Source of the DNA: a virus
Direction: 5' to 3' (one strand)
DNA length: 64,000 bases
Virus genome (UHGV): UHGV-1332848
Shown here: positions 11,888 to 30,176 of the stretch, in pieces
Layout: each line of letters opens with the position of its first letter
Numbering within the stretch: position 1 is the first letter of the stretch
Notes under the pieces: model-generated
The model's database searches: none
The model's input: only the letters and a program-made list of their open reading frames with translations
Told to the model about the DNA's origin: nothing
Translations under genes and position numbers: made by a program

Positions 11888-11936
11888 TAATAATTAATTA
11901 AAAAGTCTTGAAGGTTAATATATAATATGGTAATAT
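11888..11936 (+). promoter_or_regulatory. AATAATTAATTAAAAA motif + TTGAAG-17-TAATAT promoter
   Basis: TTGAAG 11908-11913, TAATAT 11931-11936. Confidence 0.55.
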
Positions 11937-11984: not shown

Positions 11985-12323
11985 ATGAATGAATTAAAAG
12001 CATTTTACATTACAGATGATAACGGGATTATAAAAGATCTCATAATAGGAACAAAAGAAGATAGACAAGTTGCCTTAACTACACTAGATTTTATAGAAAG
12101 TAGAAATGATAGTTGGCTCAAGCATCGAGTAGTTGAGATGCCAGCAGAAGGGATAATACATAAAGGATATATGAATATAGTAACTACTATAAAGATGAAT
12201 GGAATTCCAATTCGATGTATTCTTAATGGATTTCATAGCTTAATTGAGGCTATAGACAAGTATATGAGTATTGAAGATGGTTATAGACATTATAGTTATA
12301 TTAGCGAATACATAAAGTTGTAA
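11985..12323 (+). CDS. hypothetical protein
   Basis: 112-aa ORF, RBS GTGAGG. Confidence 0.5.
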   Translation: MNELKAFYITDDNGIIKDLIIGTKEDRQVALTTLDFIESRNDSWLKHRVVEMPAEGIIHKGYMNIVTTIKMNGIPIRCILNGFHSLIEAIDKYMSIEDGYRHYSYISEYIKL

Positions 12324-12354
12324 TAATTAATTAAAAATAGGTGGAAACACCTAC

Positions 12355-12554
12355 AATAAAGGTCGATTCAACGGTGATATGGTAAAAAGTATCACATACC
12401 TAAATCGAGAAGTATCAACCACCAAGTATTTTCTTGAAAGGGCTGAAAACTCTCGATAAACCAAAAGAGCGAATAGCTGGTAAATTCTTAGCGACAGTGG
12501 ATATTAGGGTGCTAAGACATATATACTATATCTAACAACAGTATATTTACTAGG
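12355..12554 (+). ncRNA. structured non-coding scaffold A (tracrRNA/omegaRNA-like), upstream of mini-array A
   Basis: Shares ordered blocks with scaffold B: AATAAAGGTYGATT (12355-12368), ACCTAAATCGAGAAG (12398-12412), AACTCTCGATAA (12448-12459), CAAGTATTTT..CTTG. ATCGAGA/TCTCGAT can pair. Contains anti-repeat ACATATATACTATATCTAAC (12517-12536). Confidence 0.5.
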
Positions 12555-12652
12555 GTTAGATATTAACATAGTATATATGTGAATACATGTAGCAACGGAT
12601 CATATAAAAAATGCTATCAAGTTAGATATTAACATGGTATATATATTGAATA
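12555..12652 (+). CRISPR. mini CRISPR-like array A: 2 x 31-nt repeats (GTTAGATATTAACATRGTATATAT...) with one 35-nt spacer, period 66
   Basis: Repeats at 12555-12585 and 12621-12652 with 2 mismatches. Unique spacer CATGTAGCAACGGATCATATAAAAAATGCTATCAA. Confidence 0.5.
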
Positions 12653-12711
12653 TTAGAATTGTGTATATAAATGAATTATTAACAAAATTAATTAAATAAA
12701 GAGGTATAAAA

Positions 12712-14061
12712 ATGGGGATTAAAATAAATAAATGTATAAAAGTAACTTTAAATAAATGCTTAAATATGGATATGAAAGAAATAAAAAGAATAATTAGAGA
12801 TTTTAACTATGATTCTTGTAGAGCGTCAAATAAAGCAATTAGAATGTGGTTATTCCATGCACAAGACATGATGGCAATGAAATTTATAGATAAAGATTTT
12901 AACATAAAAAAATATGAAAAAGAGAAGTATGGGAAAACGTATAGAAATGTAATTGAAAGAGAAATGAAATTATTAATGCCATTAGCGAATACTTCTAACG
13001 TAGGAACTTTACATCAGCAATTGGTTCAAAATGATTGGGGTAGAATAAAAAAGGATGTTTTAAATTACAAAGGACAAATAAGTAGATATAAATTAGATAC
13101 TCCTTATTTTATAAAAAATGATAATTACATATTAAGAAATCATAATGGATATTTTGTAGACATAGCATTTTTTAATAAAGAAGGATTAAAAAAATATGGA
13201 TATAAAGCTGGTCATAAATTTGAATTTCAAATAGATAAAATAGACAATAATAAAAAATCAGTTATAAATAAGTTAATAAATGGAGAATATAAACAAGGTT
13301 CATGTCAAATATATATTTCTAAAAAGGGAAAAATAGAATTAATAATAAGTTATGGATTTGAAAAAGAAATAGAAAATACTTTAAATCCTAATAAAATCCT
13401 TGGAGTTGATTTAGGCATAGTAAATACTGCAACAATGATAGTTTACGACTCTGAAATGGAGAAATATGATTATTTTAGTTGGAAGACAAATGTTATAGAT
13501 GGAGCAGAGTTAATTAAATTCAGACAGAAATATTATAATCTTAGAAAAGATATGAGTATAGCTAGTAAATATGCTGGTGATGGTAGAATTGGACATGGGT
13601 ATAAGACAAAAATGAAACCAGTAAATAAAGTTAGAGATAAGGTTGCTAATTTCTCAGATACTATAAATCACAAATATAGCAAATACATAGTTGAGTTTGC
13701 AGAAAAGAATAGTTGTGGAGTTATTCAAATGGAGGATTTATCAGGGGCTACTGCAAATGTGAAAGAGAAGTTTTTAAAAGAATGGAGTTATTATGACTTG
13801 CAAAAGAAAATAGAATACAAAGCTAAAGAAAAAGGAATCGCAGTAGTAAAAGTTAATCCTAAATATACCTCAAAAAGATGTAACAAGTGTGGGAATATAC
13901 ATAACGATAATAGAAATTGTAAAGATAATCAATCAAAATTCAAATGTGTTATTTGTGGACACGAAGATAACGCTGACATAAATGCTAGTAAAAATATTGC
14001 AATACCTAACATAGATAAAATAATCAATACATATATAAGTGATAATGAGAAAGTTGGTTAA
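12712..14061 (+). CDS. TnpB/Cas12f-like RNA-guided RuvC endonuclease (449 aa)
   Basis: RuvC-I 'ILGVDLGIVNTATM', RuvC-II 'GVIQMEDLSG', Zn finger 'CNKCGN...CVICGH', RuvC-III 'NADINASKNIA'. RBS AAAGAGG. No adjacent TnpA. Confidence 0.85.
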   Translation: MGIKINKCIKVTLNKCLNMDMKEIKRIIRDFNYDSCRASNKAIRMWLFHAQDMMAMKFIDKDFNIKKYEKEKYGKTYRNVIEREMKLLMPLANTSNVGTLHQQLVQNDWGRIKKDVLNYKGQISRYKLDTPYFIKNDNYILRNHNGYFVDIAFFNKEGLKKYGYKAGHKFEFQIDKIDNNKKSVINKLINGEYKQGSCQIYISKKGKIELIISYGFEKEIENTLNPNKILGVDLGIVNTATMIVYDSEMEKYDYFSWKTNVIDGAELIKFRQKYYNLRKDMSIASKYAGDGRIGHGYKTKMKPVNKVRDKVANFSDTINHKYSKYIVEFAEKNSCGVIQMEDLSGATANVKEKFLKEWSYYDLQKKIEYKAKEKGIAVVKVNPKYTSKRCNKCGNIHNDNRNCKDNQSKFKCVICGHEDNADINASKNIAIPNIDKIINTYISDNEKVG

Positions 14062-14074
14062 TTCCAACTTTAAA

Positions 14075-14283
14075 ATAAAGGTTGATTTACCAACCTAAAT
14101 CGAGAAGCAATATAAATAAAATGGCTTATGTGCTATGATTGGAGATATTAACTCTCGATAATGCCTTCAAGTATTTTAGCTTGGGAAAAGTGAAAGTTGG
14201 AGAGCTGATAAAGTCAGCGAGGTTGCTTTCTGATACATCTTATTGGACTTATTTATATATGGTTAAATGGCTATTTTAAAATG
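14075..14283 (+). ncRNA. structured non-coding scaffold B (tracrRNA/omegaRNA-like) beginning 14 nt after the TnpB-like stop
   Basis: Blocks AATAAAGGTTGATT (14075-14088), ACCTAAATCGAGAAG (14093-14107), AACTCTCGATAA (14150-14161), CAAGTATTTTAGCTTG. Has 8-9 nt complementarity (GATACATCT, 14223-14231) to the repeat. Confidence 0.5.
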
Positions 14284-14510
14284 GTTTGATATTAACATGA
14301 GATGTATTTAAATTTATTAATATCTAATTGTTTAGTAACTTTTGATATGTTTGATATTAACATGAGATGTATTTAAATTACATTGGTAAAAACTCTTTAT
14401 AATAGAAGTCTATGTTTGATATTAACATGAGATGTATTTAAATTAATCTCCACAGTATTCGTTTAAATCTAAATTGTAGCTTGATATTAACATAAGATGT
14501 GTTCGAATTG
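14284..14510 (+). CRISPR. mini CRISPR-like array B: 4 repeats (GTTTGATATTAACATGAGATGTATTTAAATT), 3 unique spacers (~34 nt), period exactly 65; terminal repeat degenerate
   Basis: Repeat starts 14284, 14349, 14414, 14479. Last repeat TTGATATTAACATAAGATGTGTTCGAATTG is mutated. Spacers are unrelated to each other. Confidence 0.6.
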
Positions 14511-14523
14511 AGTTGAATATGCA

Positions 14524-14570
14524 ATAATTAATTAAAAACTATTGAGAAACATAGAAATATATGGTAATAT
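14524..14570 (+). promoter_or_regulatory. AATAATTAATTAAAAA motif + TTGAGA-17-TAATAT promoter
   Basis: TTGAGA 14542-14547, TAATAT 14565-14570. Immediately after array B. Confidence 0.55.
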
Positions 14571-14777
14571 AAAAGAGTGGATAAATTCTACAAATAAAAT
14601 CGTACTAGATTAAATTTACATATATAAAAATAGTTAATTAAAAGGAGGTGGAATATATAAATAAAATTAAAATTTTCTTATATGGACTAATGATAAGAGT
14701 AGACGTCAAATTCAGACTGTACCACAAATGGAGTGAATTTAAAAAATGGGTTGATGTAAAAATGGGTTGATGTAAAA

Positions 14778-14942
14778 ATGGGTTGCAGGGATAAAACTGG
14801 AAATATCATAAAATGTAGGTATTGTAGGTCTAAAAACTTAGATTGTTACGATAACATAATTGATTCTGGATGGTGTTCTATTATTGAAAAGATGGTAGGA
14901 TGCAAACAATGTGGAAAAGATTTGGGGTATAAAAATAATTAA
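14778..14942 (+). CDS. small Cys-rich Zn-ribbon-like protein
   Basis: 54-aa ORF with 6 Cys including CxxC pairs. Start created by third copy of a 16-bp tandem repeat (ATGGGTTGATGTAAAA x2.5). Confidence 0.3.
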   Translation: MGCRDKTGNIIKCRYCRSKNLDCYDNIIDSGWCSIIEKMVGCKQCGKDLGYKNN

Positions 14943-17767: not shown

Positions 17768-17798
17768 AATAATTAATTAAAAAGAAAGGGGTGGTATT

Positions 17799-30128: not shown

Positions 30129-30176
30129 AATAATTAATTAAAAAGTATTTACAAAATATAGATATGGTGTTATTAT
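30129..30176 (+). promoter_or_regulatory. AATAATTAATTAAAAA motif + TTTACA-17-TATTAT promoter-like element, followed by hairpin 30180-30213
   Basis: TTTACA 30148-30153, TATTAT 30171-30176. Hairpin AGTACAAGG...CCTTGTACT + T-rich right after. Confidence 0.4.

Follow-up and report, generated by a model that had tools for sequence, protein, structure and literature searches.

The genome of virus UHGV-1332848 raises the question of why two clearly related sequence elements should lie on either side of a single gene. In the present study, we analysed a stretch of 64,000 nucleotides of this genome (the window), in which one element, scaffold A, precedes and the other, scaffold B, follows a gene of 449 amino acids (12712-14061, plus strand). 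It is concluded that the two scaffolds are very probably paralogous genes for trans-activating CRISPR RNAs (tracrRNAs) of a phage-borne miniature type V-F Cas12f system. The evidence comes from the identity of the gene, the architecture of the RNAs, their covariation, their cognate pairing with the repeats, the turnover of the arrays, their mimicry of host arrays and one exact protospacer. The fuller explanation, in which dual tracrRNAs serve their own arrays in an arrangement coupled to the host, is held to be likely as a whole. The window is phage DNA, encoding a DNA polymerase (PHROG match 2.7e-282), an exonuclease V, a DnaB-like helicase and NrdD, and the carrier is a Clostridium phage. 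Each scaffold belongs to a cassette of a tracrRNA, a short leader and a mini CRISPR array, and cas12f has the A cassette on its upstream side and the B cassette on its downstream side. The original prediction, which dealt with positions 12355-14283, omitted both CRISPR arrays and did not mention the cas12f gene between the scaffolds.

That prediction had described two scaffolds with shared sequence blocks, and all four blocks were located in the window. Block 1 reads AATAAAGGTCGATT in scaffold A (12355-12368) and AATAAAGGTTGATT in scaffold B, where it lies at 14074-14087, one base to the left of the position first given (14075-14088). Block 2 (ACCTAAATCGAGAAG, 12398-12412 and 14093-14107) and block 3 (AACTCTCGATAA, 12448-12459 and 14150-14161) have exactly two copies each per 64 kb against 0.01 expected; two copies were reached in none of 100 shuffles for either block. 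A search of the window with a nucleotide profile of related sequences (nhmmer, 23 modules) also returned only two copies, with E values of 3e-32 for B and 8e-20 for A. Block 1 (AAAGGTYGATT) corresponds to stem 1 together with the loop that makes the second repeat:anti-repeat contact (R:AR-2), and it changes with the repeat type precisely at Y and at the base that follows GATT. Blocks 2 and 3 contain the core of stem 2, namely ATCGAGA/TCTCGAT with AAG and AAC beside it. They had been proposed to pair as a 7-bp stem; six of these pairs are near-invariant across the 23 modules, and the seventh, an A-U pair, is present in 8 of 23 only. The extra hairpin noticed in scaffold A (GTGATA...TATCAC, 12374-12397) is real, but relative to the nearest type-A relatives it is an insertion of 24 and not 29 nt. 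The fourth block is CAAGTATTTTCTTG in A (12423-12436) and CAAGTATTTTAGCTTG in B (14168-14183), and the swapped order described for the last two blocks is not supported as homology, as no single homologous element has been rearranged. The CAAG...CTTG block (CAAGTATTTT..CTTG) forms stem 3 in B. Its look-alike in A belongs to stem 2 and lies in the variable tip, a place at which ACCAAGTA is found in other type-A scaffolds as well; at the position that truly corresponds to stem 3, scaffold A has a weak hairpin only.

Both tracrRNA genes are about 170 nt long. The gene for tracrRNA-A (12358-12531, plus strand, with predicted RNA ends) begins with stem 1, in which GGTCG (12361-12365) pairs with CG (12372-12373) and ACC (12398-12400) around the loop ATTCA (12366-12370), the R:AR-2 partner; the lineage-specific inserted hairpin (12374-12397) interrupts the 3' side. 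Stem 2 (ATCGAGA 12404-12410 with TCTCGAT 12451-12457), the weak stem 3 (12460-12481), stem 4 (TCTTAGC 12486-12492 with GCTAAGA 12511-12517) and the anti-repeat ACATATATACTAT (12517-12529), a perfect complement of repeat A, follow in this order. In the gene for tracrRNA-B (14077-14245, plus strand), stem 1 (GGTTG 14080-14084 with CAACC 14091-14095) encloses the R:AR-2 loop ATTTA (14085-14089), and is followed by stem 2 (ATCGAGA 14099-14105 with TCTCGAT 14153-14159), stem 3 (14166-14172 with 14179-14185), stem 4 (14192-14197 with 14225-14230, inner hairpin 14204-14218) and the anti-repeat GATACATCTTAT (14232-14243). When scaffold B is folded by itself, the minimum-energy structure has stems 1-4 exactly as listed, and the anti-repeat is unpaired. 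The stem-2 motif ATCGAGAAG...CTCTCGAT (GAGAAG / CNCUC) is present in both A and B, and in the fold of every module stem 2 is separated from the anti-repeat by a stem-3 hairpin and a long stem 4. A scan of the region against Rfam matched the scaffolds to no RNA family; the only hit was CRISPR-DR3 on the repeats, at 36.8 bits, below the gathering score of 41.

The protein encoded between the scaffolds is a Cas12f of the V-U3 / AsCas12f-like clade. It matched the Pfam family Cas12f1-like_TNB (8.5e-23) and, over the full length, the PADLOC profiles Cas12u3 (1.3e-120) and Cas12f (4.6e-116), with 401 bits for the Cas12f-specific profiles. Full-length alignment to solved Cas12f-type chains of 422-446 amino acids gave E values of 1e-73 to 1e-70; judging by their length, we take these chains to be AsCas12f. 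In the alignment to chain 8j12, the motifs DLG, QMEDL and NADINA and two CxxC motifs are conserved, which are presumably the Asp/Glu/Asp catalytic sites of RuvC and a zinc finger. The protein has 1,270 relatives, many of them on phage-like contigs of 100-160 kb and in Clostridium genomes. At the nucleotide level, blastn of the locus against GenBank phages gave one distant match only, annotated as a 'transposase', and a protein scan of genome contigs with the Cas12f sequence gave no match. The locus is without cas1 or cas2, and no Cas1 or Cas6 homologue was found in the 64-kb window.

If the scaffolds act as RNAs, their stems should be kept by compensatory change in homologues, a check on structure and covariation that had been proposed beforehand. 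From 27 loci (fetched by cas12f or by pattern and denoted here by L numbers) and one bacterial locus, we assembled the 23 distinct modules, and for the count of pairs the final 22 nt of the cognate repeat were appended to each tracrRNA. Standard pairs were formed in 89.2% of cells, as compared to 25-49% when the partners were slid by 1-3 columns. Both sides vary in 18 of the 29 pairs, and the covariation score was 0.296 against 0.136 in shuffles (0/500). Two compensatory replacements affect stem 2: U-A has become C-G in L016B, and in L027A and L118A C-G has become U-A. RNAalifold on a MAFFT alignment of the stem-3/4 region returned no structure, with indels misaligning the arms; because MAFFT misaligns these stems, their arms were scored with their own versus permuted partners. 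In this comparison stem 4 formed 6.91 of 7 pairs with its own partner versus 5.60 permuted, and stem 3 formed 5.13 of 6 versus 4.58 (0/20,000 permutations for each). This abundance of compensatory change supports the earlier proposal of a paralogous structured RNA kept by selection on structure and not by recent duplication. The alternative that the blocks are remnants of coding sequence is disfavoured, because indels in the alignment of the region are often not multiples of three. On the same ground an open reading frame of 46 amino acids within scaffold B (14139-14279), which overlaps stems 2 to 4, was rejected as coding.

Covariation also extends from each scaffold to the repeats of its own array. 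In R:AR-1, the contact of the 16-nt anti-repeat with the repeat body, the mean energy over the modules was -11.8 kcal/mol for cognate versus -5.2 kcal/mol for non-cognate combinations (0/20,000 permutations), and 9 of 12 pairs vary on both sides. In R:AR-2, the loop pentamer of stem 1 forms all five pairs with the last five bases of the repeat in 23/23 modules, through five covarying combinations (ATTTA/TAAAT, ATTCA/TGAAT, ATTTC/GAAAT, ATTCC/GGAAT and ACTTA/TAAGT). The cognate duplexes of the window reach -14.3 kcal/mol (A) and -12.6 kcal/mol (B), as opposed to -3.2 kcal/mol for A with B and -2.6 kcal/mol for B with A. The A and B pairs cannot cross-hybridise, and therefore the nuclease would have two separate guide channels.

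The cassettes of related loci fall into the same two types. Type A has the loop ATTCA, ATTTC or ATTCC and repeats ending in GAAT or AAAT after ...TATATGT; type B has the loop ATTTA and repeats ending in ATTTAAAT. Six distinct loci carry both types (the window, L002, L008, L015, L016 and L027), and their Cas12f proteins are 58-100% identical to that of the window; the remaining loci have B only or A only. A scaffold adjoins the cas12f gene in every locus with both flanks readable. The positions of the cassettes vary, both being upstream of cas12f in L027 and the B cassette being upstream in L001; each cassette is therefore a movable unit of tracrRNA, leader and array. A literature search of incomplete coverage gave no relevant report of natural dual tracrRNAs, and no publication was found in which a single Cas12f has two diverged, non-cross-pairing tracrRNA/array cassettes or in which phage arrays bear a host type I-B leader end; these features appear to be new.

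In order to place these RNAs, the phage scaffolds were compared with the guide scaffold of AsCas12f1 from Acidibacillus sulfuroxidans (type V-F1; sequence from bioRxiv 10.1101/2022.10.20.513037). The order of elements is the same: stem 1, stem 2, stem 3, stem 4 and anti-repeat. The loop of the 5' hairpin of AsCas12f1 (GTTCA) complements the repeat end TGAAC, as R:AR-2 does at the same place in the phage; then come TAAGCCGAGAAG...CGCTCGGTAA, a small hairpin with GAAAC after it, a long stem and the anti-repeat, and in both the stem-3 hairpin is followed by a purine-rich linker. The stem-2 sequence GCCGAGAAG...CGCTCGG of AsCas12f1 aligns in register with the nucleotide profile of the phage scaffolds (nhmmer), and the similarity in sequence is confined to this stem-2 base, at 5.6 bits. 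A like motif, GTCGAGAAG...CCCTCGA, was seen by eye in the Un1Cas12f1 scaffold (10.1101/2022.10.20.513037). The structure of AsCas12f1 comprises stems 1-4, R:AR-1 and R:AR-2, with R:AR-2 coaxial on stem 1; in its stem 2, G27-G32 (GAGAAG) and C63-C67 (CGCUC) form base triples that are held by the RuvC helix hairpin (bioRxiv 10.1101/2023.07.03.547593). By analogy of motif, similar triples may form in the phage RNAs, and the triples and the grip of RuvC in AsCas12f1 would explain why the stem of the original prediction is the most conserved and is identical in A and B. The tracrRNA of AsCas12f1 was sequenced from Cas12f complexes, is 169 nt long and is encoded between cas12f and the array (PMC8548392), and cassette B resembles it in having a tracrRNA gene of about 170 nt in that place. 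Unlike AsCas12f1, the phage system has two diverged non-cross-pairing cassettes, no adaptation genes, and repeats and leaders like those of host type I-B arrays. The tracrRNAs of Cas12f are already known, and by every feature that can be tested in the sequence the scaffolds of the window are clear members of this group.

The arrays next to the scaffolds are short. Leader A (12532-12554, plus strand) ends with AACAGTATATTTACTAGG, a leader-end motif as in host type I-B arrays, and array A (12555-12650, plus strand) consists of two repeats, namely repeat 1 GTTAGATATTAACATAGTATATATGTGAAT (12555-12584) and a degenerate terminal repeat (12621-12650), with one spacer (12585-12620). Leader B (14246-14283, plus strand) has the host-type end AAATGGCTATTTTAAAATG; array B (14284-14508, plus strand) has four repeats, three of them GTTTGATATTAACATGAGATGTATTTAAAT (14284-14313, 14349-14378 and 14414-14443) and the last degenerate (14479-14508), around three spacers (14314-14348, 14379-14413 and 14444-14478). 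Repeats are 30 nt and spacers 35-36 nt long, and the gap between scaffold and array is about 25-40 nt. In nearly all arrays of related loci the terminal repeat at the far end is degenerate. L005 and L006 encode an identical Cas12f protein and have no spacer in common, and L010 carries one additional spacer proximal to the tracrRNA in comparison with L011 and L025. Thus, the arrays turn over and behave as live arrays.

For comparison with bacterial arrays, one genome per species was scanned with the 3' half of the repeat as the query, giving at least 120 loci. The matches listed were nearly all from Clostridium, in arrays of up to 121 repeats that adjoin genes for Cas1, RAMP/Cas6 or Csm1. Among these matches, the commonest Clostridium repeat, with 874 of the 1,618 host repeats that matched, has exactly the last 22 nt of the B repeat (TTAACATGAGATGTATTTAAAT), and A-like repeats were seen in L118 only, the others being B-like or unrelated to type A; IMG/VR gave no type-A repeats. 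Directly ahead of repeat 1, the leaders of host arrays close with GAATGGCTATTTTAC(A/T)(G/A)TG, and phage leaders of both types end likewise. The type I-B arrays of C. pasteurianum and C. tetani have 30-nt repeats, 34-37-nt spacers preceded by TAAAT, and the protospacer-adjacent motif (PAM) 5'-TCA-3' (PMC4860712). Array B shares with a Clostridium type I-B array the 3' half of the repeat, the spacer length and the leader end, and differs in the 5' part of the repeat, whereas array A shares only the leader end and the 5' half of the repeat. Neither cas1 nor cas6 is present in the window. The arrays imitate type I-B arrays but belong to the Cas12f system.

One spacer of the window has an exact target. 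The third spacer of array B (B3, 14444-14478) matched at 35/35 positions a metagenome contig of 2,987 bp (L148, OBZR01003657.1), which has 24% G+C and no repeats flanking the match and encodes a terminase small subunit. The contig otherwise shares nothing with the window, and is therefore taken to be from another phage. The 5' flank of this protospacer is ...TATCA. The gene matched by B3 (L148 171-1073) encodes a protein of 300 amino acids with no PHROG match, in which a GIY-YIG-like segment (FIYFILNEFNKIKYIGRTSNIYRRFAFH) was seen by eye; it may be a homing-endonuclease-like gene of a rival phage. A spacer of L021 matched at about 28 of 36 positions the KilAC antirepressor gene of C. tetani phages, with the 5' flank ...ATTCA. 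Both protospacers found therefore carry a 5' TCA, equal to the clostridial type I-B PAM, in two cases of which one is diverged. The other searches gave no target, whether 41 spacers were compared with GenBank phages, 57 with plasmids, 62 with the window and every fetched locus, three spacers of the window as exact 24-mers with IMG/VR, or the spacer of array A with metagenomes; two L010 spacers matched only their own arrays in IMG/VR.

On this basis the following mechanism is suggested. Both tracrRNAs would be transcribed from the plus strand, and each would bind the CRISPR RNA (crRNA) of its own array by two contacts, R:AR-1 between the 3' anti-repeat and the middle of the repeat, and the pseudoknot-like R:AR-2 between the stem-1 loop and the last 5 nt of the repeat. 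The same Cas12f dimer would presumably accept both tracrRNA:crRNA pairs, since A and B agree in stem 2 and in the geometry of stem 1 and R:AR-2. The complex is predicted to direct the cutting of DNA matched by the spacer, with a rival phage as at least one target. New spacers would be inserted in trans by the type I-B Cas1-Cas2(-Cas4) of the host. Such host-dependent adaptation of the phage arrays is considered somewhat probable, and insertion by the host I-B machinery is the most likely route because cas1 and cas2 are absent and both arrays have the leader end, repeat length and spacer length of the host. The host-type B repeat half, the polarised gain of spacers and the two TCA-flanked protospacers also point to uptake by this machinery.

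A connection of this kind has been proposed for V-F1 systems. According to the PAMPHLET preprint (10.1101/2024.04.09.587696), V-F1 systems co-occur with I-B systems and often share their PAMs, and borrowing of I-B adaptation was put forward. The V-U3 / V-F1 loci without cas1-cas2 noted there likewise combine a Cas12f with the lack of an adaptation module in Clostridia, and the TCA flanks found here agree with the proposal. The latter is reported to be based on genome co-occurrence and PAM prediction; the phage arrays add that the leader end and the 3' half of the repeat are shared, that spacer gain is polarised and that there is a second repeat type, which is private. The present system is on a virus, so that any donor machinery would belong to another genome. 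The phage family bears on how V-F1/V-U3 systems without cas1-cas2 obtain spacers.

A further consequence concerns the B channel. The contacted last 22 nt of its repeat are identical to the commonest Clostridium type I-B repeat, and so tracrRNA-B should pair with host pre-crRNA in addition to that of the phage; a host-type crRNA would comprise GTTGAACCTTAACATGAGATGTATTTAAAT and a spacer. As the B channel cannot be distinguished chemically from host crRNA at any tracrRNA contact, cross-talk with host arrays seems hard to avoid, be it put to use or simply tolerated, with the A channel insulated from it. That tracrRNA-B serves as a bridge to the CRISPR memory of the host is a rather unlikely idea. 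If it were true, the phage Cas12f could load host spacers and turn the immune memory of the host on rival elements, and the processing of tracrRNA:host-repeat duplexes, for which RNase III is assumed, could spoil maturation by Cas6 and blunt type I-B or III immunity of the host. TracrRNA-B would then steal guides and at the same time act as an anti-CRISPR made of RNA, and the A pair would be an insulated private channel.

Other explanations of the scaffolds have to be weighed against dual tracrRNAs. The scaffolds could be omega-RNA (reRNA) remnants of IS200/IS605-type TnpB transposons and the gene a transposon nuclease, since the protein also matches NCBIfam guided_TnpB (162 bits) and Pfam OrfB_IS605, several homologues are labelled 'transposase' in their source records, and scaffold B begins right after the stop codon, the usual place of an omega-RNA. 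However, much higher scores, spanning the whole protein, came from the Cas12f-specific profiles, while the TnpB equivalog models of NCBIfam stay far below their cut-offs (61/425 and 36/350 bits). A transposon would have a single end guide, in contrast to the repeat-spacer arrays with phage-specific spacers and polarised gain seen here. No tnpA was recognised beside the gene in the window or in the fetched loci, where the Pfam-annotated neighbours are unrelated, although the transposon ends were not searched explicitly. This origin is regarded as highly improbable. Equally improbable is the view that the scaffolds are DNA leader regions of type I-B mini-arrays used by host Cascade, next to an unrelated TnpB-like gene. 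The host-type repeats and leader ends, and the position of the scaffolds upstream of the arrays where leaders sit, agree with it; yet the phage modules have only the last ~20 nt in common with host leaders, in which all of the scaffold blocks are lacking, and a motif scan of the at least 120 host loci found the scaffold signature, among the matches listed, only in L118 beside A-like repeats. Compensatory change in four stems and covariation of anti-repeat and repeat are signatures of RNA, the order of elements is that of a tracrRNA sequenced from Cas12f complexes, and, as stated above, a scaffold stands beside cas12f wherever both flanks are readable.

Less remote, but still improbable, is the possibility that only cassette B is a working immune module and that cassette A is mainly regulatory, for example as a crRNA-like repressor of cas12f, or a decaying duplicate. 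Regulators resembling crRNAs are known in other CRISPR systems. The type-A arrays are short, with 1-3 spacers, and lie immediately 5' of cas12f in all 7 carrying loci; stem 3 is weak in the A copy of the window, and L021 has a fixed-guide variant. On the other hand, the type-A spacers differ among the window, L002, L008, L016, L018 and L027, as expected if they were acquired. Both R:AR contacts are kept in type A through ATTCA/TGAAT, ATTTC/GAAAT and ATTCC/GGAAT, the protein-binding stem 2 is intact in type A across Cas12f identities down to 58%, and type-A leaders retain the host integration motif.

Several points weigh against this explanation of dual tracrRNAs or limit its reach. A target was found for only 2 of 57 distinct spacers, one of them diverged (~28/36), so that the PAM and the range of targets rest on few cases. 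The TCA flanks of the phage protospacers do not fit the T-rich PAM NTTR of AsCas12f, and differ from AsCas12f1 in this respect. The 23 modules are related to one another, and the shuffle controls thus overstate their independence; the slid-partner control and the cognate/non-cognate design lessen this problem without removing it. The z-scores of the single-sequence folds are modest (-2.3 for B and -1.6 for A), and stem 3 is weak in scaffold A of the window. A scan of the AT-rich region for promoters and terminators was uninformative, with 27 promoter sites versus 24 expected, so that the RNA ends and the processing given here are predicted ones. Neither tracrRNA is followed by an evident terminator, and therefore tracrRNA and array may form one transcript.

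With these reservations, the system of dual tracrRNAs can be compared with other compact nucleases. Cas-phi needs no tracrRNA and processes its own crRNA, and its structure (7odf) gave a marginal match to the window protein, with an E value of 8e-5. Phage-encoded compact type V systems, namely Cas-phi/Cas12j of huge phages and the 'Cas12 hacker' (bioRxiv 10.1101/2025.01.20.633832), likewise lack adaptation genes and combine small arrays with a miniature Cas12, and, like the window system, have at least one spacer aimed at another phage; dual tracrRNA cassettes are not mentioned in the abstract on the 'Cas12 hacker'. The omega-RNA of TnpB and the RNA of TranC are similar in that the scaffold comes right after the nuclease gene with a pseudoknot-type contact next to the guide, and the fused, single-guide-like version with a fixed guide in L021 adds to this likeness. 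The phage system differs from TnpB/TranC in its multi-spacer arrays in place of a single guide at the transposon end, and LaTranC matched the window protein with E 9e-6 as compared to 1e-73 for Cas12f chains. Cas12f is the smallest CRISPR nuclease family in genome-editing use, and its long tracrRNA is the main engineering target. The phage family gives at least 23 natural tracrRNA variants in which covariation maps the free and fixed parts, and it provides one small nuclease with two tracrRNA:crRNA sets that occur together in nature and do not cross-pair. The locus is also a tangible example of CRISPR being directed by one phage against another.

Some related loci depart from the two cassette types. 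A third type ('C') is found at 4430-4680 of L021 (Clostridium sp. GCA_948709175.1; same in L022), in which a short loop connects the anti-repeat of a full tracrRNA scaffold with a repeat 3' half, making a natural single-guide-like hairpin. This hairpin is followed by a fixed 'guide' TAGGATATTATTAAGTATATTAATTAC and an intrinsic terminator, and its loop ACTTA covaries with TAAGT. The cassette could be a regulatory guide or an omega-RNA-like intermediate. A role of the fixed guide as an autoregulator of cas12f was considered and set aside, as its similarity to the region upstream of cas12f is only weak and gapped, and is kept as a lead. In two IMG/VR contigs of 32 kb and 154 kb (L012 2916-3100 and L013 9734-9920), a distant scaffold with CCTAAATCGAG...CACTCGATAAGG precedes one anti-repeat/repeat-like pair (CACTTCATAC / GTATGAAGTG), and an array is lacking. 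The bacterial contig L118 (Clostridium tagluense A121, NZ_BHYK01000021.1) carries at about 400-740 a type-A-like tracrRNA with two A-like repeats.

The surroundings of the locus showed some further features. With 1 mismatch allowed, the 16-nt motif AATAATTAATTAAAAA was counted 28 times in the window, as compared to 0.33 expected, among them the copies at 1342-1357, 11889-11904, 12322-12337, 14523-14538, 17768-17783 and 30129-30144. Its copies share the strand of nearby genes, and several of those inspected stand directly after a stop codon. The cas12f cassette is bracketed exactly by two copies on the plus strand, at 12322-12337 (left edge) and 14523-14538 (right edge). The motif may serve as an intergenic signal throughout the phage, for example as an all-frame stop or as an element of promoters or terminators. 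A hairpin, GTTGGTTAATTCCAAC (14053-14068, plus strand), spans the cas12f stop codon directly 5' of tracrRNA-B, and a like hairpin, AGGTGGAAACACCT (12339-12352), precedes tracrRNA-A; each may be either a terminator or a 5' extension of the RNA. Similar 5' hairpins precede the modules of L002, L008 and L010, and the TACAAT or TAAAAT found after these hairpins could be a -10 box. Just 3' of the cassette, at 14742-14785, a perfect tandem repeat of AAAAATGGGTTGATGT (2.8 copies) overlaps the start of the open reading frame 14778-14942.

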